Positions 46,727 to 58,854 of a stretch of 64,000 nucleotides of DNA are shown here, piece by piece. The stretch covers positions 3,011-67,010 of the forward strand of contig JAAYSR010000234.1 of the NCBI GenBank assembly GCA_012518325.1, written 5' to 3'. The notes under the pieces are model-generated. The model made no database searches. It was not told the DNA's origin and saw only the letters and a program-made list of their open reading frames with translations. Each line of letters begins with the position of its first letter. The stretch's first letter is position 1. Source of the DNA: Bacillota bacterium. Lineage in GTDB: Bacteria; Bacillota; Limnochordia; Darwinibacteriales; Darwinibacteriaceae. The translations under genes and the position numbers were made by a program.

Positions 46727-47290
46727 CTATTTCCTTCCAAACACACCTTCGTCAGTGGCTAGGAAGTCCACCGGCCTGTCCCAGGGATCTACAGGCACAT
46801 CGCGCACAAAGGTCTGATACACTAAGCCAACGGTCTTCGCAGGCGTCGAGGCCAGAAACCGGTCATAGTAGCCGCCTCCGTAGCCGATGCGGTAGCCCTG
46901 AGGTGAAAAGGCCAGGCCTGGCACCAGTATCAGATCCAGCTCTTCAGGGTCAGCAGCAGGGGCTTCCGGTCCAGGTTCCAAAATGCCAAAGACGGCAGGG
47001 GAAAGAGCTTCCCGGGATGTAAAACGCCTGGCCACAAGCCCCTTGGGATTGCTCTGCACCACCGGCACGTATACTTCTTTGCCCAGGGACAGGGAGTGTT
47101 CTGCAATCTGCCAGGTGTCGATTTCCCAGCCGAAGGAGAGATAGGTCATGACGTTGTGAGCCTCTGCATAAACCTGATGTTGGGAAAGATGCTGAAAGAT
47201 CGCCTGATTCCACTGCTCCCGCAGATCCTTCGGCACCCTGCCCCTCTCCCTTTTCAATTCCCTTCTAAGCTCATTCTTGCTCATGATCAT
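46727..47290 (-). CDS. 5-formyltetrahydrofolate cyclo-ligase
   Basis: 187 aa. GYGGGYYDR is the 5-FTHF cyclo-ligase motif. Confidence 0.88.
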   Translation of the reverse strand: MIMSKNELRRELKRERGRVPKDLREQWNQAIFQHLSQHQVYAEAHNVMTYLSFGWEIDTWQIAEHSLSLGKEVYVPVVQSNPKGLVARRFTSREALSPAVFGILEPGPEAPAADPEELDLILVPGLAFSPQGYRIGYGGGYYDRFLASTPAKTVGLVYQTFVRDVPVDPWDRPVDFLATDEGVFGRK

Positions 47291-48560
47291 TCACCGGCCT
47301 TATCACAACAGTAGTCGACCGCTCCCAGTCAAGATGCTCTGCCAGGGCAGCCTGCACCTCATCTGCTGTCACGCTTTGCAGCACTTCCAGGAAACTGTCA
47401 GAGGGGATCCCCCGAAAATAGTTGGAGATCAGGCGATTTGCGGTATACTCGAAGGAGTCGTAGGACGCAAGATGCGCCCCGTAAAACTGCCTTTTCAGGC
47501 GTTCTACATCGCCGCTGGAAACTCGGGCAGTCTTCAGTTCGTTGATGATCCCGCTCAATGCATGATGGAGGGCATCAGGATCCCGGGTTTCCGAGCCCAT
47601 GGCTGAGTAGGCAAATCTAGGGTCTGCGCTGAAGTATGCTGAAAAAGAGTCTGTAATCAAGTCTTCTGCGTACAGCCTCTCATAGCTTGCGGAGCTCCGG
47701 CCTGCAATCAGCCTCATGCCCAAAGACATCACAATCTGTTGGCGGAGAAGATCCTCCCCCTGCCAGACGGGCTCGTGCTTAAAACCTAAGAGATAGCGGG
47801 GACGAGAAACTGGCAGTTCTTCCTCTACCCTGGCGGCCTTGACCTGACGCGGCTCTGGAGGATCAAAACGCTCAATGGGTCCTGTGCTTTGCTCCCAGAC
47901 GGGATAGTTGTCCTCGATCATCTGGAGAGTCTGAGCCGGATCCACATCGCCGACAACTGCCAGCGCCATGTTTCCGGGCTGGTAGAAGGTATTGTAGCAG
48001 CGCATCAGATCAGCCACAGTGGTTCTTTGCACCGACTCTGCCGTGCCGCCGATATCCAGCCTGACGGGATGCTCGCTGTACAGGTTCTCCAAGAGCAGAC
48101 TGTGGATGCGGTGACTCGGATAATCTGCATACATTTGCAGCTCCTGGATAATGATTCCCTTCTCTTTCTCTACGTTTTCGTCCGTCAAATGGGGACTGTT
48201 CACAAACTCAATCAAAAGCCGCAGGCAATCCTCCCAATTCTCGGTGGTAGAAAAGAGATAGCTCGTTTGGGTATAGCTGGTAAAGGCATTGACAGATGCG
48301 CCCCATTCCGCGTAACGGCTGAAAACACTGCCTCCTTCCTCCTCAAAGAGTTTGTGTTCGAGGAAGTGGGCAATACCCGCGGGAACATCCACGCAATCTC
48401 CGCCGGAAACTCCAAATCTAAGATCTATGGAGCCGTAATTGGTGGACAACATCCCGTAGGTTCTCAAAAACTGCTTTCTAGGAAAGACAAAACAGCTTAA
48501 ACCATTGGGCAGCCGTTTGCTGTATACGGTATCTCCAGTGGGGGTCTTAATCTTCTCCAT
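47271..48560 (-). CDS. M16 family zinc peptidase (insulinase-like, with HxxEH)
   Basis: The start MEKIKTP at 48560 has RBS AAGGAAGGAG. GIAHFLEHKLF is the inverted zinc motif HxxEH. Confidence 0.85.
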   Translation of the reverse strand: MEKIKTPTGDTVYSKRLPNGLSCFVFPRKQFLRTYGMLSTNYGSIDLRFGVSGGDCVDVPAGIAHFLEHKLFEEEGGSVFSRYAEWGASVNAFTSYTQTSYLFSTTENWEDCLRLLIEFVNSPHLTDENVEKEKGIIIQELQMYADYPSHRIHSLLLENLYSEHPVRLDIGGTAESVQRTTVADLMRCYNTFYQPGNMALAVVGDVDPAQTLQMIEDNYPVWEQSTGPIERFDPPEPRQVKAARVEEELPVSRPRYLLGFKHEPVWQGEDLLRQQIVMSLGMRLIAGRSSASYERLYAEDLITDSFSAYFSADPRFAYSAMGSETRDPDALHHALSGIINELKTARVSSGDVERLKRQFYGAHLASYDSFEYTANRLISNYFRGIPSDSFLEVLQSVTADEVQAALAEHLDWERSTTVVIRPVNDHEQE

Positions 48561-49833
48561 AGTTTGCTCCTTCCTTTTGCCCTGGACGCAGCAGATAGGT
48601 GGTGTCGAGTTCAATGCCCTGCATCGCTCGGACGCAATCATCATATTCCACCCTGCTGATGGCTTCCACAACCTGGTCTACGGAGCGCAGCTCCCCCTCC
48701 ACCATTCCGATCACATTGCGATCGATAATGCCTGCAGGATTATCGTTGATGCCGGTCATAGCACTGATCAGGCCCCGTTTTGTCTGCTCCAGCTCCTCAG
48801 GGCTGATCCGCCCTCCTTTAATGGCATTCACCTGCTCATTAATGATTTCCACAGCCTGCTCCCGGCTGTCATCGCTGATGCCTGCTACGATCGTAAGCAG
48901 TCCCTTGCTGCCTTCAATGCTCGAACCCACAGAATAAGCAAGGCTGGCTCTTTCGCGCACATTCATGAACAGTTTGGAGTGGGGAAAGCCGCCGAGAACT
49001 CCGTTGCCCACCAGCAGCGCATAGTAATCGTCATCAAGATAGGTGCAGTTTGTACGGTACCCCATTACCAGAACTGTTTGGTTTACATCCAGAGATTCCT
49101 CGAAAACCCGCTCCCCTTCAACCTGAACTCTCATAGGCTTCTGCAGCGTGACACTGCGGCCGGAGCTTGGGATCAGCGACGCGAAGAGATCTGCCGCCTG
49201 GTCAAGGTTGGACCCGACGATGAAAACATCCAGGGGATGCCTTTGCAGCAGGTTCTGGTAATGCTCATATACAAAGCGGTTGTCCAAGTGTTCCAAGCTT
49301 TCCAGATCACCATATTTGTAAATCCCAAAGGGTTCGTCCTCGCACATCAGGGCTGTAAACCGAGCTAGGGCATAGGATCGCTTATCATTGACCAACCCCT
49401 TCAAATCCTGTTCCAAGGTGCGCTTTTCCTGTGAGAAATACGGCTCATGGAAGCGATCGCCAGGGCCAAAGGGTTCGGTAAAAATCTGCCAAAACGACCT
49501 TAGCCCCCGCTCCAACAGTTTCTCTCCCTGCGGCAGCAGTTTGGGGTCCACCATTTGAAAGTAGAGCTCAAGGATCTGCCTCTCACCGACTTTCAAAATG
49601 TCAGAACCAAACTCCGCCGCATACAGCTCCTCCGACTCCCGGGCAATATGCAGGGTGGAAGGAAAGGTTCGCGATCCCCTGCGCAGCAAAAGAGGCAGGA
49701 GCGCGGTGCCCGTCGCCTCCTTTTCCTTCAGGTCCTGCTGGATAAAGATCTTGCAGGTCAGGGACGTAAACTTATCCGTTTCACAAAGGTGCAGGCGCAC
49801 ACCTTCGCTCAGTTCACACTGTGTGAATTTCAC
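48547..49833 (-). CDS. M16 family peptidase, non-catalytic-type partner (no HxxEH)
   Basis: The probable GTG start at 49833 lies after AAGGAGGAG. The gene is paired with the upstream M16 gene, a pair that resembles YmfF/YmfH. Confidence 0.8.
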   Translation of the reverse strand: MKFTQCELSEGVRLHLCETDKFTSLTCKIFIQQDLKEKEATGTALLPLLLRRGSRTFPSTLHIARESEELYAAEFGSDILKVGERQILELYFQMVDPKLLPQGEKLLERGLRSFWQIFTEPFGPGDRFHEPYFSQEKRTLEQDLKGLVNDKRSYALARFTALMCEDEPFGIYKYGDLESLEHLDNRFVYEHYQNLLQRHPLDVFIVGSNLDQAADLFASLIPSSGRSVTLQKPMRVQVEGERVFEESLDVNQTVLVMGYRTNCTYLDDDYYALLVGNGVLGGFPHSKLFMNVRERASLAYSVGSSIEGSKGLLTIVAGISDDSREQAVEIINEQVNAIKGGRISPEELEQTKRGLISAMTGINDNPAGIIDRNVIGMVEGELRSVDQVVEAISRVEYDDCVRAMQGIELDTTYLLRPGQKEGANYGED

Positions 49834-52800
49834 AATAACTCCTCCTTGGCCCATTCCATGTCAATACCTGTATTCTCCCCAAAAGGAGAAACATCATTAG
49901 AAGTTCTGCAATATGCATTCTGGGGGCAGAGAGAACAGTCGCTCCTGATGGGAAAAGCCGCCGCGCCCTGTTCAGAGCCTTGAATGATGTCTGTACAGGT
50001 CTTAATCAGCCACTCTTCTGTCTGATCAGCGTCCAAGAGCCGAGCTTCCAGCCCGTATAAACGGTTAGGTATCAGGAAATAGGCTTGCGAGCTGATTACA
50101 GGCAGCCCAAACTCCCTAGCCATCGCCCAGGCATAGAGGCGAAGCTGCACATCATAACCTGCACCCACCTGAGTCACCTGGTCATGGGTGATCCAGTTGG
50201 ACTTGAAGTCGACAATCTCAATGCCCCCCTCACCGAGGTAGACATGGTCAACCAAGCCGTTTACATAAAAGTCGCCCGCGGGAATAATAAAATCATGTTC
50301 CTGGAAAATCTTGCCCCGTCCCTGCTCCAGCCGCACTCTGCTAAAAAACTCACTGTTTAGGTAGGCTGTGATAACCTCCTCCAGCCCGGACTTCTGCCTA
50401 TTATCCAGTACCACACCTTCCATCGCGGCAGCATGTTCCACCAGTTCCGACAGCATGCGCGGGTCTTTGATCTGTTCAACCACCCGGTGCACAATATTTC
50501 CCCTCTGGGTCCCGCTCAGGGGCGCCCCGGCACCGCCTGAACCAGCCTGAACTCTGACGGGCTTGCGTTCAGGCACGCCTAGAATATAGCGGAGATAATA
50601 ATAGCGAGGACAGCGGGCATAACTCATCAATGAAGTGACGGAAAAGGAAACCTGATTGTATTGGGGCGTAAGCGGCACATAGTCTGGAAACTCCGGTTGC
50701 ACAAGTTCTGCCGAAGGCGCCTTGCCTTCAAGGGGCGGCAGGGTCCCCGGCACCTCCCTATAAAGATCTCCCGGCAGCCATTCGAGGGCAGCCTGGAGCC
50801 AGGACCACCAGCTGTCTTTCGCTGTCTTGCCGTCCCTGGCACACCAGTAAAGCCTCTCTTCAGCCCTGGTGACAGCTACATAAAGCAAGCGCTTGGCCTC
50901 GCTGATTTCTTCCTGCTTTTCGATCTCTTTCAGACGTTCAAAGCTTGCCATGCCGCGATAGGTTAAGCCAATGTCGGGATGGTACAGAATATCTCCCTTC
51001 TGAGCCCGCACTGCTCCGGCATTGGTGTCAGGCAGAAAGACTACTGGAAACTCCAAGCCCTTAGCCCCGTGAATCGTCCGCAGCACCACCACATCGGCAT
51101 GTTCCGCATCAAGGAGGGCCTCTCCCTCTTTTTGCGCTTCTCGTGCCATCAGGCGCAGAAATCTCGCTTGTTCCGGAATTGCATACACATCCTTGGCAAA
51201 GAGATCCCAGCTTTGTTCCAGAAGTTTTTCTATGTTGGCAACCTTTTGCGGTCCGAAAGGCAGGCGCCAGGTTTTAGCCACATAGTCTGTCCGCTGCAGC
51301 AGGCTGGATATAACCTCCGGGGCGGGTCTGTGCCTGGACTGGGCTTTGAGAAAGTCATAGTCTGCCTGCGACTTGACCACCGCTTCCTGCTCCTTGGCGC
51401 TCAGCTTGTCCAAGCGTCCCTGTCTAAGCCAGAACAGGCCTTCATCGGAAACCAGATAGAACGGAGAGCGCAGCACTGCCAATCGCGCGGCCTCATCCTG
51501 AGCATCTTCCAGCCAGCGGAAGTAGTGCAGAACATCCTGGATCTCCTGTTTTGAAAAAAACCCGCGGCCGCTGAGATTCACATAGGGAATGCCAGCTTCT
51601 TTCAGGGCTTTCTCATAAATGTGCGCATTGGTCATCGCCCGGAAGAGAAGGGAGATATCCTCATAGCGGTACTCTCCTCCGTCCACCAGCTTTCTGATCT
51701 TGAGGGCGATCTGCTCGGCCTCCAGTGCCCTGGCCTCGGCAGAAAGCTCATCTTCTGCCGGCGTCCGCAGGATCGCCACGCAAGGTTGTCCAGCTTCTTC
51801 TTTTTTTGCCGCACTTTTTTCAAAGCCTATGGCTTCCCCGGCCAAAAGTTCGCCAAAAAAAGCATTGACAAAACTGAGCAGCTCAGGGCGGGAGCGGAAG
51901 TTCTCCTCCAAAAACACAGTCTCGCCGGCAGCTGCAATTTCTGCCTTAGTATCCAGAAAGACCCCTACATCTGCACCGCGGAAACGATAGATCGACTGCT
52001 TAGGGTCACCTACTACAAAAAGCGTGGCACCGCCTTCTACAAGCGAGTCCACAATTTTTTTCTGCAGGGGATTGGTGTCCTGGAATTCATCTACGCACAG
52101 ATGCTTAAAGGGGTAGTCGGCAAGGACATTCGGATCCTGCAGAAGCTCGTAGGCAAGCTGTTCCAGGTCATTGTAGTCCAAGACGCCGAAGAGTCTCTTC
52201 CTCTCTCGGTAAAGCTCGTGGACCTGTGCCAAAATCTCCCCTACATACGCAAGGATCATTCGGCCCTGCTTCTCCTTAATGATCCCCTGGGCCCTTTCGA
52301 TTAAGTTCCGAAACTCCCGGGTTTGCTCAGCCAGCTTTCCCCTTATTTTCTTAATCAGATTAAGCAGTACATCCAGAGCCTCCAGGCGCAGCCCGTCATC
52401 TGGGAAGGCCAACAGGTCAGCCAGAGCAGGCCACTCCTCTGCCAGTTCTGCCAATATCCGTTCCTGGACCTCGGTGGTGGGTTTTAGGGCTAACACCCAT
52501 GCGGCAGCCTGACGGAGCTGGAACAAGGGGAAATCTTCCACCTCGTCCTCTGAAAAAGCATAATCGAAGTCAAAATCCCCCTTGCCGGCCATTTTCTCAT
52601 ACAAGTCCAGCACCATAGCTGCAACTTCAGAGGGACTGCCCAGCTCTTCAGGCGGATCCGACTCAGCGATCACTTCTTCAACCGCCTCGCCGAGCATAAC
52701 CCTGGTTTCCCACTCTTCTCCCACACGAAAACGGGGATCAATCCCTGCCTGGAGAGGGTGTTCCTTAATAATGCGCTGACAGAGACTGTGGATCGTTGAA

Positions 52801-53051
52801 ATCTGGGCCTGCTCAATGCTTTCGATTAAGTCGGGCCGTTCATCCCGCAGGCGATCCTTCATCTCCTGGGCGGCCTTTTTTGTAAAGGTAATGGCGGCAA
52901 TTTCATCTACCTGAACGCCTGTCCCTAGCAGATGCAGATAGCGCTCAACCAGAACTCGCGTCTTGCCTGAGCCTGCGCCGGCTGTAACCGCCAGGGGGTG
53001 GTCGATGGTGGTAATAGCCTTCTCTTGGCTGGGCGTCGGTTCAAAAGACAT
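49830..53051 (-). CDS. addA: ATP-dependent helicase/nuclease subunit A (AddA/RexA; UvrD-like helicase plus a C-terminal RecB-family nuclease)
   Basis: 1073 aa. The helicase region has Walker A AGAGSGKT plus VDEFQDTN, and the C-terminal nuclease has GDFYVNGLVDHVY...IVDFKS...QLRLYA. It also carries Cys residues in the pattern C...CSLCPQNAYC (Cx2Cx5C). Confidence 0.88.
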   Translation of the reverse strand: MSFEPTPSQEKAITTIDHPLAVTAGAGSGKTRVLVERYLHLLGTGVQVDEIAAITFTKKAAQEMKDRLRDERPDLIESIEQAQISTIHSLCQRIIKEHPLQAGIDPRFRVGEEWETRVMLGEAVEEVIAESDPPEELGSPSEVAAMVLDLYEKMAGKGDFDFDYAFSEDEVEDFPLFQLRQAAAWVLALKPTTEVQERILAELAEEWPALADLLAFPDDGLRLEALDVLLNLIKKIRGKLAEQTREFRNLIERAQGIIKEKQGRMILAYVGEILAQVHELYRERKRLFGVLDYNDLEQLAYELLQDPNVLADYPFKHLCVDEFQDTNPLQKKIVDSLVEGGATLFVVGDPKQSIYRFRGADVGVFLDTKAEIAAAGETVFLEENFRSRPELLSFVNAFFGELLAGEAIGFEKSAAKKEEAGQPCVAILRTPAEDELSAEARALEAEQIALKIRKLVDGGEYRYEDISLLFRAMTNAHIYEKALKEAGIPYVNLSGRGFFSKQEIQDVLHYFRWLEDAQDEAARLAVLRSPFYLVSDEGLFWLRQGRLDKLSAKEQEAVVKSQADYDFLKAQSRHRPAPEVISSLLQRTDYVAKTWRLPFGPQKVANIEKLLEQSWDLFAKDVYAIPEQARFLRLMAREAQKEGEALLDAEHADVVVLRTIHGAKGLEFPVVFLPDTNAGAVRAQKGDILYHPDIGLTYRGMASFERLKEIEKQEEISEAKRLLYVAVTRAEERLYWCARDGKTAKDSWWSWLQAALEWLPGDLYREVPGTLPPLEGKAPSAELVQPEFPDYVPLTPQYNQVSFSVTSLMSYARCPRYYYLRYILGVPERKPVRVQAGSGGAGAPLSGTQRGNIVHRVVEQIKDPRMLSELVEHAAAMEGVVLDNRQKSGLEEVITAYLNSEFFSRVRLEQGRGKIFQEHDFIIPAGDFYVNGLVDHVYLGEGGIEIVDFKSNWITHDQVTQVGAGYDVQLRLYAWAMAREFGLPVISSQAYFLIPNRLYGLEARLLDADQTEEWLIKTCTDIIQGSEQGAAAFPIRSDCSLCPQNAYCRTSNDVSPFGENTGIDMEWAKEELL

Positions 53052-55498
53052 TAGAACCCCACCTCCTTACGGCAGATACCCTGAAAGGCACAAAAACTGC
53101 AGATTCTGGAACTGGCAGGTTCAATGGGAAACTCACCCTCCAGGATACGCTGGGCATAGTCCTGCAAGATTTCGGCAAACTTTTCATTCTGCACTGCGAA
53201 ACCCGCTTCGTCCAGAACATTCTTGCCTTTAGTTACGCCAAGTTCCTTGCAGTAAGCCTCATGGAATATACCTTTCCTGCTTCTCTCCCTGATCACGTAG
53301 TAGGCTGCGCCAACATTCTGTCCCTGGGGAAGGATATCCTGGGCAGCCAGAAGATAGGCGGCAATCTGTACATCTTTTCCCGCGACCATGGCGCTAATCT
53401 GGGGAGCAGTCCCCGTCTTGTAATCGTAGAGCACATAGGCACCTTCCGCGTTGAGATCAATACGGTCAATGCGTCCTCGGATAACTACAGGTCCCAAAGC
53501 TGTAGTGACGGCCAGCCCCTGGAACCATTTTTCCAGATATTTAGGGCGAAATCCCCTCTGGGCCCAGGTTAAGTCAGAGCGGATAAAACTTCGCATTTCC
53601 CTGATCAGTCTGCTGGAAGGCTGGGCGCCCACGCCGTCATATTCCTTTCTCAGCAGGCCTTCAATCTTGACCTGTCCGTCCTCGACATCCGGAAGGGGAC
53701 CTTCCAGGTGCTCCTCCCAAAAAACCTGCAGTGCTTTGTGGACCAGATTGCCATGATCCCTGGCATCCAGCTCCAGGGATACTTCTTCATCCGGTACCAG
53801 CCTGAGGACATAGCTGCAGAAGAACTGGAAGGGGCAGTTGGCATAGCGGTTCAGCTGGGAGACTGACAGACCGTCCTCTAGGACCCTGCTTTGCAGCTCC
53901 TTGAGAAGCTCCCTGTCCTCCAAGAAACCTTCCCCCAGGAAAAGAGTGGGGTGGTGGATTCCTTCCCCTTTGACGGTCCTGGTTTCCTCTGCCTGTTTCG
54001 GCAGGATGGCCGCGGGCAGATTCAGTTTGCCTGCCCGGTCCACCTCTGGATAGTATAAGTTCACACACGCTGCTGCACTGAGCAGGCGTTCAAAAAGTTC
54101 TGTTCTCACCAGGGCAGGTCTGGCCTTGGTCAGCCAATGAGCGTTCCTCAGGGGCGGAAACTGACCCTCCACCAGTCCTCCTGCGTAAAGCTGCCCATAC
54201 ATCTGAGCTCCAAGCTGCTCCACACTGACCACCTGCACCTGCTCAGAAAAAATCCGTCTGCCCTGGATCTGATAACTGTCCAGAAGGTCTTGCAGCAGCT
54301 GAACAAATCGCTCAGGCGTGATCGTCCAGTCAAACTGGGTGAAACCTTGGGCAATTTTCTGCAGGCCGTCCCACGCTTTCACGAGCTCAGCCCAGTTATC
54401 TATCTCTTCATCAGGCACAACCCACAACTCCGGCTGAAGCTTGTCCAGCAGATCTTCCAGCAGGGCCCCGTATTCCCTGAGGGGTCTGGGGAAGAGTTCC
54501 TTGACGATGGCGCTGAGAAGCTCAAAGAGCTCTTCCCAGCCAGGCTGTATCCCTAGATACTCGCGCCAGGCAGGAAAACCCCTAAGAGGAGGCCCCAGGC
54601 GGAGCAGACGCTTTTCTTCGTCCGTTAAGACATGGGGGAGACCCCAGCCAGGTGCAGTCAGCAGCTCCCAGTGGTGTTTGTGCCAGCCCTGCAGCTCTGC
54701 CAGGAATGCGGTGAGGAAAGTCTTGCCTAGAGGAGTGTTGCGCAGACTCACCTCAGGCACCCTCCAGGGGATTTTCATTTTCCCAAAGACCATGCGGAGA
54801 ATCGGCAAATACTGCCCAGGATTGGGGAACGCCACCCCGAGCTCGTCAATTGGAACACCCTGCTCGATCTTGCGGCGCAGCTCCTCTCCAATCATCTCCA
54901 CCTCGGCAATGGGGTCGCTTGCTTTGCTGACTGAAACCTCTGCAGCTGAAGCCTCCGGTCGAATGACTTCCAATGACCTTCCCCGGGCTAGAGCTTGCAC
55001 GAGTTCCTGTTCCAGGGGGCGAAGCTCGCCTAATCCATACACTCTTACTTTCTCTGTTTCAGGCAGCGCCTTCCTTTGCCTTGCCAACTCTACGCTGCGT
55101 TTCATCTGGTCTGCAGCATCCAATACACCGTGGCCCGCCAGAATTTCTTTGTACCTGGTATGCAGTAAATACAGTTCAAGGCGGCCTGCTTCGGGCATGG
55201 AAGCAAAGATGTCTTCGCCGAAATCCGCCTGCTGAAACAGCGTTTTCAGCTCCTGGACAAAACCCGGGTAATGGGCTATAGGCGCGAAAAACTTCAGCTC
55301 TTCGGCATAATCCTGGACGCTTTGCCAAACAGCCACTTCTTCCACGATCTTGTCCTCCCTGTAGGAAACCAGACCCTCCTTGAGAATCTGGGCTGCGAGT
55401 CCGGGCAGCGTCATCACCAGAGAGGAGTCTCCCTCCCTGACCAGGCGCCGCCTGAATCTGCGTATCAAACTGTTTGGAACCAAGTACAGGCAAGTCAC
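53051..55498 (-). CDS. addB: ATP-dependent helicase/nuclease subunit B (AddB/RexB-like; inactive helicase-like N-terminus plus an Fe-S RecB nuclease)
   Basis: 815 aa with no Walker A motif. The C-terminal nuclease has IDRIDL...YVLYDYKTG...QIAAYLLA, with Cys CPFQFFC and CSFCAFQGIC (Cx2Cx5C). Confidence 0.82.
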   Translation of the reverse strand: MTCLYLVPNSLIRRFRRRLVREGDSSLVMTLPGLAAQILKEGLVSYREDKIVEEVAVWQSVQDYAEELKFFAPIAHYPGFVQELKTLFQQADFGEDIFASMPEAGRLELYLLHTRYKEILAGHGVLDAADQMKRSVELARQRKALPETEKVRVYGLGELRPLEQELVQALARGRSLEVIRPEASAAEVSVSKASDPIAEVEMIGEELRRKIEQGVPIDELGVAFPNPGQYLPILRMVFGKMKIPWRVPEVSLRNTPLGKTFLTAFLAELQGWHKHHWELLTAPGWGLPHVLTDEEKRLLRLGPPLRGFPAWREYLGIQPGWEELFELLSAIVKELFPRPLREYGALLEDLLDKLQPELWVVPDEEIDNWAELVKAWDGLQKIAQGFTQFDWTITPERFVQLLQDLLDSYQIQGRRIFSEQVQVVSVEQLGAQMYGQLYAGGLVEGQFPPLRNAHWLTKARPALVRTELFERLLSAAACVNLYYPEVDRAGKLNLPAAILPKQAEETRTVKGEGIHHPTLFLGEGFLEDRELLKELQSRVLEDGLSVSQLNRYANCPFQFFCSYVLRLVPDEEVSLELDARDHGNLVHKALQVFWEEHLEGPLPDVEDGQVKIEGLLRKEYDGVGAQPSSRLIREMRSFIRSDLTWAQRGFRPKYLEKWFQGLAVTTALGPVVIRGRIDRIDLNAEGAYVLYDYKTGTAPQISAMVAGKDVQIAAYLLAAQDILPQGQNVGAAYYVIRERSRKGIFHEAYCKELGVTKGKNVLDEAGFAVQNEKFAEILQDYAQRILEGEFPIEPASSRICSFCAFQGICRKEVGF

Positions 55499-56353: not shown

Positions 56354-58597
56354 CTATAGCCAAATAGAAACTTCATCCCGATCCATAAGCTCAATACATT
56401 CTCGCAGTTTCCCGTTGAGATGTGCGTCTTCAGTCGTAGCGTTGCGCACCTGCCTTAAAAGGTCGATGCCTCTCCTGAAGGCAAAGACTAGATCGCCCTC
56501 ATCAACGGAGGAATCCTCCAGGAGCTTGGTGAAGCTTTCACCATTGCTCCAGCGGTAGGCCAAGGCAGCCACATGATCGTTAAACTGCACAGTCGAATAC
56601 CCAACCATCCTTTGCTCCATTTTCATCAAGGAATGCCAGATGCGGATGATCGGCGAAAAATCCAGTCTATGCTTGATGCGGAACTCGTTCTTCCGGGGCT
56701 CGTAACCGACTGAAACCAGGGCTGCGTTGAGCTCAGGGGGCGTATAGGCCTGAAACAACCCTTCCATGAACATCTCGGTAATTAACAGCTCATTGCCGTG
56801 AATCTGGCTGGCCAAAAGTCCTGCAGTAGTCAGCTCATCATTCTCCAAATAGCCCAGGGCTTCCAAAAACGCCTTCTTGTCGGAAAACTCCTGAATGTAC
56901 TTCTTATGTGGGTCGAGGGCCTCTTCCCTCAGCATCAGGCGCTCATAGGCTGCGATTTTCCTGCGGAACTTCCTGTGCTCCCGCCGCAGCGCCGAGCGCT
57001 GCTGTCCTGGATATTCGCGGAAAAAGGCGCTGTCAATGCGCTGAATCAGAGCACGCAGATCTCGCTTCATGCCCTTCTTGGCCCGTCGGTTGTAAGTGTT
57101 GGCCAAACGGCGCTCAAGCTCACTTTTCTTGCGAATTAGGCGGGCAAGCCCGTCCCGGCCGCGAAGATGCTGCTCATAACGGGCAAGTTCATCTTTCAGC
57201 ATCTCGATCTGCACCAGCACTCCCTGCCGCTCCGCCGAAGCCTGGTAAGTAGCGAAGTTCTGCCCCAGGATGCGGTGGATGTCCTGTTCGTTGTAGTTTT
57301 TCACCAAATTCAGGATGGAGTTATAAGTCAGGGCGAACTGGCTCTGGAGGGGCTCCACTTCATCCTCCTTCATGCTGGGGAACTCCCCGGCGTCGAAGTA
57401 ATTCAAATCTACAACGGTGAAGACATACCCCTCTTCATCAATGCCCCTGCGCCCTGCCCTGCCGGCCATCTGAAAATATTCACGGTTTGAAATGGGCCGA
57501 AATGTGACTCCGTCCCATTTGGTACTGGAATCGAAACAGACAGTCTTGCAGGGAAAGTTGAGGCCCACCGCGAAGGTCTCTGTGCAGTAGAGCACCTGAA
57601 TCAGGCGCTGCGTGAACAGCTCTTCCACAATGTCCTTTAAAACAGGCAGCATGCCCGCATGATGATAGGCTATCCCCTTTAAGAGAAGGCGTCTCAAGTG
57701 GGGCCAGCGTCCGCTTTCTACATTTGGATAACGCTCCAGCACTTCATCGATAATTGCCTGCACCTGGGCTTTCTGGGCTTTGTCCAGAAAGTCCTGTGCT
57801 TCGCTGAGCTCCAGCGCGTTGCTTTCACACTTTCTGCGGCTGAAGGTAAAGAAGAGGCAGGGCAGGTACTGATCTTTGATGGCGTCCACCAAGTCCAAGT
57901 GGGTGGTCGCCGGCACATCGGGACGGCCGTCAGTGCTTTCCGACATCAGCCGGCGATGCTTTTTCTGCAGCCTGCCCATGGTTGTAAAGCCGAGGGAACG
58001 TTCATAGAGCGCGTGTTTCAGAGGTACAATCCGCTCAGAGTGGGTTACCACTTCTACATCTGATCCCTGCACCTCTTCGATCCAGCTGGCCAGCTCATCC
58101 ACGTTGGGGATGGTCGCACTTAATCCGAGAAAACGCATGGAAGGCGGCATGAAAATCAGGCTTTCTTCCCATACGCTCCCCCTCTCCGGATCATCGATGT
58201 AGTGGATTTCATCAAAAATCACATAGCGAACATCACTGACACGCTCCGGATCTTCCTGGAGCATATTACGGAAGATCTCCGTTGTCATGATCAGAATCGG
58301 TGCATCGGGGTTTACGACGATGTCCCCTGTTAAAATGCCCATGGCTTCAGGGCCCACCAGGGCTTTGAACTCCCTGTACTTCTGATTGCTCAACGCCTTG
58401 ATCGGTGCTGTATAAACCACCCGGCCCCCTTCCCGAAAGATCTTCTCGATTATGTAATCGGCAATCAAGGTCTTCCCTACTCCAGTCGGAGCAGCCACTA
58501 GGACAGACTTGTTCTGGTCAATAAAGTCCACTGCCTGCTCTTGAAAGGGATCCAGAGTGAAACCGCGATACATTCTAGCTGTTGGCTGCTTGGTCAC
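56354..58597 (-). CDS. Ski2-like superfamily-2 DEAD/DEAH-box helicase with a DSHCT-like C-terminal domain (HelY/Mtr4-like)
   Basis: Motif I is AAPTGVGKTLIA, motif II is DEIH, and the Q-like FQEQA is present. The helicase core is followed by an arch-like region and a C-terminus resembling DSHCT. I place the start at the GTG at 58597, 6 nt after AAGGAGG. Confidence 0.82.
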   Translation of the reverse strand: MTKQPTARMYRGFTLDPFQEQAVDFIDQNKSVLVAAPTGVGKTLIADYIIEKIFREGGRVVYTAPIKALSNQKYREFKALVGPEAMGILTGDIVVNPDAPILIMTTEIFRNMLQEDPERVSDVRYVIFDEIHYIDDPERGSVWEESLIFMPPSMRFLGLSATIPNVDELASWIEEVQGSDVEVVTHSERIVPLKHALYERSLGFTTMGRLQKKHRRLMSESTDGRPDVPATTHLDLVDAIKDQYLPCLFFTFSRRKCESNALELSEAQDFLDKAQKAQVQAIIDEVLERYPNVESGRWPHLRRLLLKGIAYHHAGMLPVLKDIVEELFTQRLIQVLYCTETFAVGLNFPCKTVCFDSSTKWDGVTFRPISNREYFQMAGRAGRRGIDEEGYVFTVVDLNYFDAGEFPSMKEDEVEPLQSQFALTYNSILNLVKNYNEQDIHRILGQNFATYQASAERQGVLVQIEMLKDELARYEQHLRGRDGLARLIRKKSELERRLANTYNRRAKKGMKRDLRALIQRIDSAFFREYPGQQRSALRREHRKFRRKIAAYERLMLREEALDPHKKYIQEFSDKKAFLEALGYLENDELTTAGLLASQIHGNELLITEMFMEGLFQAYTPPELNAALVSVGYEPRKNEFRIKHRLDFSPIIRIWHSLMKMEQRMVGYSTVQFNDHVAALAYRWSNGESFTKLLEDSSVDEGDLVFAFRRGIDLLRQVRNATTEDAHLNGKLRECIELMDRDEVSIWL

Positions 58598-58854
58598 AGG
58601 CAACCTCCTTTGTCTTCTATAGTTTGCCTATGCAGAAATCATCTTTCTTTATGTATTCCCCATCAGTGGAGAAAAAGACAAGGCGATCGTACACAACAAA
58701 ACTGATTATCCTATACCTTTCGGGACCTTCTCTCAACTTCCTGCACTCCCCGGCAGAACTGTGGTACAATAGGACTGAATGCAGGGTGTGCTGCTGGATT
58801 GTGGACTGGAATAGCACTTCATATGTACGGCATAATAACTCCGGGAGGGACGTT

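Follow-up and report, generated by a model that had tools for sequence, protein, structure and literature searches.

AddAB-type helicase-nuclease genes of a Limnochordia bacterium encode predicted iron-staple nucleases in both subunits

The role of iron-sulphur (Fe-S) clusters in recombination nucleases is debated, and structural stapling, DNA-end binding and redox signalling have all been considered. Yeeles 2009 is reportedly the founding paper on the iron staple. To our knowledge, the solved bacterial end-resection machines contain at most one cluster, always in the non-motor subunit. Here we describe an addB-addA gene pair found in a 64,000-nucleotide stretch of contig JAAYSR010000234.1 (the window) from a Limnochordia bacterium of the phylum Bacillota, in which both encoded proteins carry the cysteine set of an iron staple. 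In described AddAB enzymes the cluster is assigned to AddB (PMC3321194, PMC3378879, PMC2887965), and iron-staple domains have been called rare and listed as AddB, Dna2 and Cas4 (PMC7430649).

Bacillus subtilis AddAB (PDB 3U44, 4CEH; PMC3321194) gave the best sequence-profile match for the window AddA and the best fold match for the window AddB. Both systems have the gene order addB-addA, an AddA made of a superfamily 1A (SF1A) motor and a RecB-family nuclease, and an AddB made of an inactivated helicase-like scaffold and an iron-staple nuclease with the pattern C...Cx2Cx5C. The crystallographic 4Fe-4S ligands of the B. subtilis enzyme are AddB C801, C1121, C1124 and C1130, with C801 in a turn between two helices; an earlier note on this DNA had stated that only AddB binds a cluster in this enzyme, which the structural work bears out (PMC3321194). 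Unlike the window AddA, B. subtilis AddA lacks the cysteine module, its chain terminating directly behind the nuclease core. The B. subtilis AddB Walker A motif, which stabilises the Chi complex and is shared by a large group of AddB proteins, those of the Bacillus type among them (PMC3064778), is absent from the window AddB. The window proteins are also smaller: AddA has 1073 amino acids (aa) against 1232, and AddB 815 against 1166.

Other relatives differ in other ways. Mycobacterial AdnAB (PDB 6PPR, 7SJR, 9NP6) has its cluster in AdnA, the AddB-like subunit, and none is reported for the motor subunit AdnB (PMC8789073), the sequence of which does not align to the module described here. ATPase motifs are kept in both AdnAB subunits, whereas the window AddB has none. 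Bacteroides fragilis AddAB (PMC2887965) is an active single-motor enzyme with a shortened AddB (209 aa below B. subtilis) that keeps four cysteines; the cysteines are described only for AddB, and the window AddB is shorter still. In the literature searched, outside which many subscription papers lie, we found no description of cluster cysteines in any AddA subunit or of an AddAB-type pair with both sets; the UvrD-Cas4-like fusions discussed below come nearest (PMC5704561). The kind of enzyme and the AddB iron staple are thus known; what appears to be new, on the sequence evidence, is a cysteine set in both AddAB subunits, and a widespread one.

We propose, with a probability of about 0.75, that the locus encodes an AddAB-type heterodimeric double-strand-end resection helicase-nuclease with iron-staple nucleases in both subunits, predicted to hold two Fe-S clusters. 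The earlier note had described a compact pair, both members below Bacillus length, in which an AddB without Walker A has a RecB nuclease with C...CSFCAFQGIC and the AddA nuclease domain has C...CSLCPQNAYC at identical spacing. The open reading frames are exactly as it had claimed, and all the cysteines were located (Table 1). The spacing is shared by the two subunits, with a single cysteine ahead of the catalytic core and a Cx2Cx5C triad behind it. This triad is expected by chance about 6e-4 to 8e-4 times per protein (AddA has 9 cysteines, AddB 8), a rate below 1e-3 that makes coincidence unlikely.

Conservation of the AddA cysteines among orthologues had been set beforehand as the test on which the idea depended, and the idea withstood it. 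Among full-length homologues down to 28% identity, C814 was found in 116/116, C1039 in 110/116, C1042 in 113/116 and C1048 in 105/116. Allowing Cx3 or Cx4 spacing, four cysteines were kept in 102 of these proteins and three in 14; none had fewer. In a search of 1.84 billion 50%-identity cluster representatives, the triad was present in 124 of 130 new top matches, and in 96 of the 100 that were at least 950 aa long. Among the AddB orthologues, C555, C800 and C803 were found in 39/39 and C809 in 34/39, the five exceptions being serine. Such conservation across homologues implies selection. It makes it scarcely credible that the AddA module is an evolutionary relic that binds nothing, as might be argued from the 14 homologues that have lost one cysteine and from the studied AddA, RecB and AdnB nucleases, which function without the module.

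Alignment to the AddA, AddB and Adn families, which the earlier note had called for, placed the AddA triad on the AddB ligands. A profile of the AddA C-terminal module aligned to residues 1091-1131 of B. subtilis AddB, and its three cysteines fell column-exact on C1121, C1124 and C1130; the triad of ACE1 likewise aligned with that of AddA. When a 270-position profile of the AddA nuclease was compared with PDB sequences, B. subtilis AddA aligned only to position 216, two residues short of its C terminus, AdnB no further than about 209 and RecB no further than about 200, all of them stopping before the module, whereas the Fe-S proteins AdnA, Cas4 SSO0001 and ACE1 aligned through position 267, cysteine module included. 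Profiles were needed for this, as querying the PDB with the AddA nuclease domain as a single sequence gave nothing useful. By fold, the modelled AddA nuclease came closest to solved Fe-S nucleases, and iron-staple enzymes, namely Cas4, Dna2, ExoV and ACE1 (PMC3466216, PMC4176176, PMC3439918, PMC12094033), were among its best matches. In these enzymes, as in the window protein, a RecB-family core lies between one cysteine on its N-terminal side and three on its C-terminal side; they differ from the window protein in being stand-alone or, in Dna2, fused to an SF1B helicase, and none is an AddAB-type motor subunit. The model puts C814 at the turn that joins two helices (residues 17-25 and 27-35 of the model), which is also the placement of C801 in B. 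subtilis AddB (PMC3321194). In the AlphaFold model of AddB, C555 sits at the turn joining helix 546-554 to helix 556-564. Collectively, these data indicate that the AddA cysteine module is homologous to the known AddB ligand module. We infer that both sites bind a cluster, most likely [4Fe-4S], and that the one in AddA is most likely structural, by analogy with AddB.

Several observations weigh against this proposal. Metal binding by the AddA cysteines is a prediction, sequence alone revealing no metal, and the match of the C-terminal module profile to AddB had a weak E-value of 0.058, the profile being short. One cysteine has been lost in some related lineages, so in some of them the fourth ligand is either dispensable or replaceable. 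Cas4 Pcal_0546, which shares this four-cysteine layout, binds a [2Fe-2S] cluster (PMC4176176). Both proteins scored far below the curated NCBIfam cut-offs: AddA reached 339.5 bits against 707.65 for TIGR02785 (addA_Gpos) and 254.4 against 860.75 for TIGR02784 (addA_alphas), and AddB 66.7 against 903.7, 59.5 against 486.5 and 39.3 against 718.35 bits for TIGR02773, TIGR02786 and TIGR02774. The genome may also hold a second, canonical AddAB or a RecBCD elsewhere. The Pcal_0546 precedent, together with relatives that have an altered spacing (Cx2Cx3C, in a clade of about 41% identity) or three cysteines and so suggest plasticity of the site, would fit another metal centre in AddA, structural Zn2+ or [2Fe-2S], in a domain that is still stapled. 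We consider this quite unlikely: the AddA cysteines are spaced precisely as at the AddB and ACE1 sites, the AddB site holds a 4Fe-4S cluster (PMC3321194), and the folds nearest to the AddA nuclease are Fe-S nucleases.

The remainder of AddA is that of an intact motor-nuclease subunit of the AddA kind. Pfam matches comprised UvrD-helicase (E 1.7e-60), UvrD_C (E 1.3e-35) and PDDEXK_1 (aa 802-1049). A profile built from 70 homologues matched B. subtilis AddA (3u44_A) at E 2e-169, positions 5-1045 against residues 11-1230, far better than PcrA, UvrD, RecB or AdnB. The ATPase residues G25, G27, G29, K30, T31, D321, E322, Q324 and D325 were invariant in the 70 sequences. The nuclease site (H855, D935, D948-x-K950, Q969...Y973) is intact and invariant among relatives, and D935, D948, K950, Q969 and Y973 were invariant in the 116 homologues. 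In the model coordinates of the NCBIfam alignment, the protein lacks about 70 aa relative to Gram-positive AddA ahead of aa 247 and about 70 more from aa 247 to 755. The tail that follows the last cysteine is predicted to be disordered (predicted local distance difference test score, pLDDT, below 50 at residues 263-285 of the nuclease model), and a motif FGE(N/T)T...W.EEE(L/F) is conserved there in close orthologues. By its appearance it may be a small element for partner binding or DNA mimicry.

In AddB, the Pfam scan found only PDDEXK_1 (aa 544-810, E 1.4e-42, profile positions 2-247 of 247), ADDB_N and helicase families going undetected. The AlphaFold model (pLDDT 86) matched B. subtilis AddB (4ceh_B) best in a Foldseek search of the PDB, over its whole length and at E 1.1e-30; AdnA, RecC and UvrD came next. 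Neither a Walker A motif ([AG]x4GK[ST]) nor a DExx motif occurs anywhere in the protein; its N terminus reads MTCLYLVPNSLIRR, and the orthologue consensus is likewise without a P-loop. The fold match without an ATPase motif identifies the N-terminal part of about 540 residues as a scaffold comparable to those of AddB and RecC, helicase-like but degenerate, and presumed by analogy with those proteins to serve as scaffold and 3'-strand scanning domain. A reading of the pair as an AdnAB-like dual motor was ruled out, AddB having no Walker A, DExx or helicase Pfam match. The nuclease site is intact, with D678, D692-Y-K694 and Q711...Y715 invariant in the 39 orthologues. The addB_Gpos model places aa 544 at model position 784, which leaves the scaffold about 240 aa short of its Bacillus-type counterpart, and the nuclease region is about 100 aa shorter in the model coordinates of the NCBIfam alignment.

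Table 1. Features of the addB-addA locus, in positions of the window.
Feature	Position	Strand	Remarks
addB-like gene	53051..55498	-	open reading frame of 815 aa; GTG start; AGGAGG ribosome-binding site
addA-like gene	49830..53051	-	open reading frame of 1073 aa; ATG start
AddA first staple cysteine, C814	50610..50612	-	SYARCPRYY; conserved in 116/116
AddA Cx2Cx5C, C1039/C1042/C1048 (aa 1039-1048)	49908..49937	-	CSLCPQNAYC; after the catalytic core
AddB first staple cysteine, C555	53834..53836	-	RYANCPFQF; conserved in 39/39
AddB Cx2Cx5C, C800/C803/C809 (aa 800-809)	53072..53101	-	CSFCAFQGIC; after the catalytic core
AddA SF1A motor (about aa 1-760)	50772..53051	-	Walker A AGAGSGKT, aa 24-31; DEFQD, aa 321-325
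AddA nuclease domain (aa 802-1049)	49905..50648	-	motifs GNIVH, GLVDHV, VDFKS, QLRLY; C-terminal helix and cysteine module
AddA acidic C-terminal tail (aa 1049-1073)	49833..49907	-	...SPFGENTGIDMEWAKEELL; follows the last cysteine
AddB N-terminal region (aa 1-543)	53870..55498	-	SF1-helicase-like fold without ATPase motifs
AddB nuclease domain (aa 544-815)	53054..53869	-	motifs GNLVH, GRIDRID, LYDYKTG, QIAAY
Two M16-family peptidase genes	47271-49854	-	downstream of addA
Ski2-like helicase gene	56354-58603	-	749 aa; DEAD, Helicase_C and DSHCT domains

The two genes are adjacent and co-oriented in the order addB to addA, a pairing kept in relatives. The addB stop codon and the addA ATG share one base (TAATG), and the addA ribosome-binding site, AAGGAGGTG, lies within the 3' end of addB, indicating that the two genes are translationally coupled. 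Relatives at 41-66% protein identity share a synteny comprising a Ski2-like DEAD/DSHCT helicase, (a HAD phosphatase), addB, addA, two M16 peptidases, 5-formyl-tetrahydrofolate cyclo-ligase and glycerol kinase; no restriction, methylase or other defence gene was found in this conserved neighbourhood. These observations bear on whether the pair might belong to another pathway, such as anti-phage defence, rather than being the cell's double-strand-break resection enzyme. UvrD-Cas4-like fusions form a large branch of Pfam PF12705 in defence contexts (Hudaiberdiev et al. 2017, PMC5704561) and, similarly to the window AddA, join a UvrD-type SF1 helicase to a Cas4-like cysteine-bearing PF12705 nuclease in one polypeptide. 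This precedent, the scores of both proteins under the curated AddA and AddB thresholds and the potential presence of another AddAB or RecBCD in the genome would favour such a role. The described fusions are stand-alone or lie beside Type III restriction-modification or Dcm/Vsr genes (PMC5704561), whereas the window addA is coupled to an addB-like gene. With a partner that resembles AddB in fold from end to end, translational coupling in the addB-addA order and a housekeeping neighbourhood kept at 41-66% identity, we regard a separate pathway as very improbable. Housekeeping synteny without defence genes favours a role in recombinational repair over one in defence.

The closest relatives of the window proteins come from metagenome-assembled Bacillota, several of them labelled Limnochordia. 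AddB proteins of 813-821 aa occur only in a Limnochordia-like clade, where they make up 49 clusters before the matches break off in a gap down to E 1e-16, and a compact form of 803 aa was found in a sister clade. The cysteine-bearing AddA reaches much further: the cluster-representative search returned 679 AddA matches at E<=1e-30, and such proteins occur in Clostridia and in cultured Thermoactinomycetaceae (Lihuaxuella, Hazenella, Melghirimyces, Salinithrix, Paenactinomyces and Thermoflavimicrobium). In Lihuaxuella and Thermoflavimicrobium the AddA Cx2Cx5C is paired with a long AddB of 1051-1065 aa that has Cx3Cx5C and no N-terminal Walker A; Pfam ADDB_N is recorded for the long Lihuaxuella AddB. 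Because the cysteine-bearing AddA also pairs with these long AddB proteins, compactness and the double cysteine set are, on this comparison of sequences, independent traits. The earlier note had proposed a distinct AddAB subtype. The cysteine sets in both subunits stand, but they are not peculiar to the compact enzyme, as the 679 cluster representatives and the long-AddB pairs indicate.

A broader comparison set consisted of AddA-like loci from named genomes, covered the matches listed only and included no close Limnochordia relatives; the order of loci in its tree came from a quick distance method, neighbour-joining, and is a rough guide only. Among the matches listed, two-set pairs also occurred in Gaiellaceae, Thermoleophilia, Solirubrobacterales, Bryobacterales, Synergistaceae and one Methanosarcinales metagenome-assembled genome; pairs of this kind span several phyla. 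The Bacillus and Clostridium types had the module in AddB and not in AddA, and Lactobacillales mostly had it in neither subunit. In the actinobacterial pairs L006, L007 and L014 (Gaiellaceae, Thermoleophilia and Solirubrobacterales), the AddB/AdnA-like subunit has a P-loop-like N terminus (e.g. GPAKAGK) and Cx3Cx5C, and the motor subunit, unlike mycobacterial AdnB, has Cx2Cx6C (CAGCPALDVVC). In Thermoflavimicrobium dichotomicum and Lihuaxuella thermophila (L001 4825-11504 and L087 2807-9561), a gene encoding a large SMC-like/AAA_27 ATPase is located upstream of the pair.

Variation in the cysteine sets was also seen closer to the window proteins. One subclade, at about 43-50% identity to them, has lost the fourth cysteine in both subunits and kept the other three in both: AddB has CSSCPYQHIS, with serine for cysteine, and AddA ends in CSDCLRWEE. 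Its members are AddA P0042-P0048 and AddB P0164-P0168, and one locus (L084 8001-13612) encodes AddB P0168 and an AddA of 1049 aa. Elsewhere (P0033-35, P0038) three cysteines are found in AddA alone, its AddB keeping four. In the sister clade (about 41% identity; L088 3584-9279), the 803-aa AddB with Cx2Cx5C is paired with an AddA with Cx2Cx3C (CHYCPYDC), and the HAD-addB-addA-M16-M16 synteny is kept. More distant AddB-like matches (P0173, P0189, P0190, P0194 and P0195), which end in ...YGDYDHLARVKEWS, have no C-terminal cysteine triad. AddB thus also exists in cluster-free forms, in agreement with the report that many, not all, AddB proteins have a cluster (PMC2887965).

If the proposed two-cluster AddAB follows the established mechanism (PMC3321194, PMC3064778), the heterodimer would bind a DNA end and AddA, as the sole motor and of UvrD-like SF1A type, would move 3'->5' on the 3'-ended strand. 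Drawn first through AddA and then past the AddB scaffold, this strand would reach the AddA nuclease, and the 5' strand would go to the AddB nuclease beside the AddB cluster. In each nuclease, the cysteine before the core, in a helix-turn-helix, and the Cx2Cx5C after it would together hold a cluster and pin the two ends of the domain to each other; the second cluster would staple the AddA nuclease, giving two clusters per heterodimer. With no ATP site in AddB, any hotspot recognition would have to manage without ATP-dependent stabilisation of the kind known from B. subtilis (PMC3064778). A further idea, which we hold to be unlikely, is that the Fe-S staple was ancestral in the motor-subunit nuclease of the AddA/AdnB/RecB lineage and was lost in the model enzymes. 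The AddA cluster, at the exit of the 3'-strand channel, might then do more than stabilise the fold, for example by coupling redox or iron status, or hotspot recognition, to shut-off of the 3' nuclease, and the loss of the fourth cysteine from both subunits in one subclade might reflect a functional link between the sites. We know of no Chi sequence for this lineage.

A motor subunit with its own predicted cluster site, homologous to that of AddB, would make this AddAB a comparative system for the contribution of a cluster to each nuclease. The family offers natural versions with four, three or differently spaced cysteines, together with cultured thermophilic Bacillales members; Thermoflavimicrobium dichotomicum and Lihuaxuella thermophila would be convenient organisms for the two-cluster idea. 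The 815-aa AddB without an ATP site may represent a near-minimal scaffold for the AddB role. The low scores against curated NCBIfam models account for the generic names of relatives in source databases. Annotation pipelines name these proteins only 'UvrD-helicase domain-containing' or 'PD-(D/E)XK nuclease family', and surveys using curated AddAB models will therefore miss the group.

Two observations concern the flanking genes. The first M16 peptidase gene begins 25 nucleotides ahead of the addA stop codon, which suggests that addA and this gene are co-transcribed. The Ski2-like helicase gene lies just upstream of addB, the HAD phosphatase gene being the only one between them, and this neighbourhood is kept in two sets of relatives with AddB 43-66% identical; the Ski2-like helicase may be functionally linked to AddAB.

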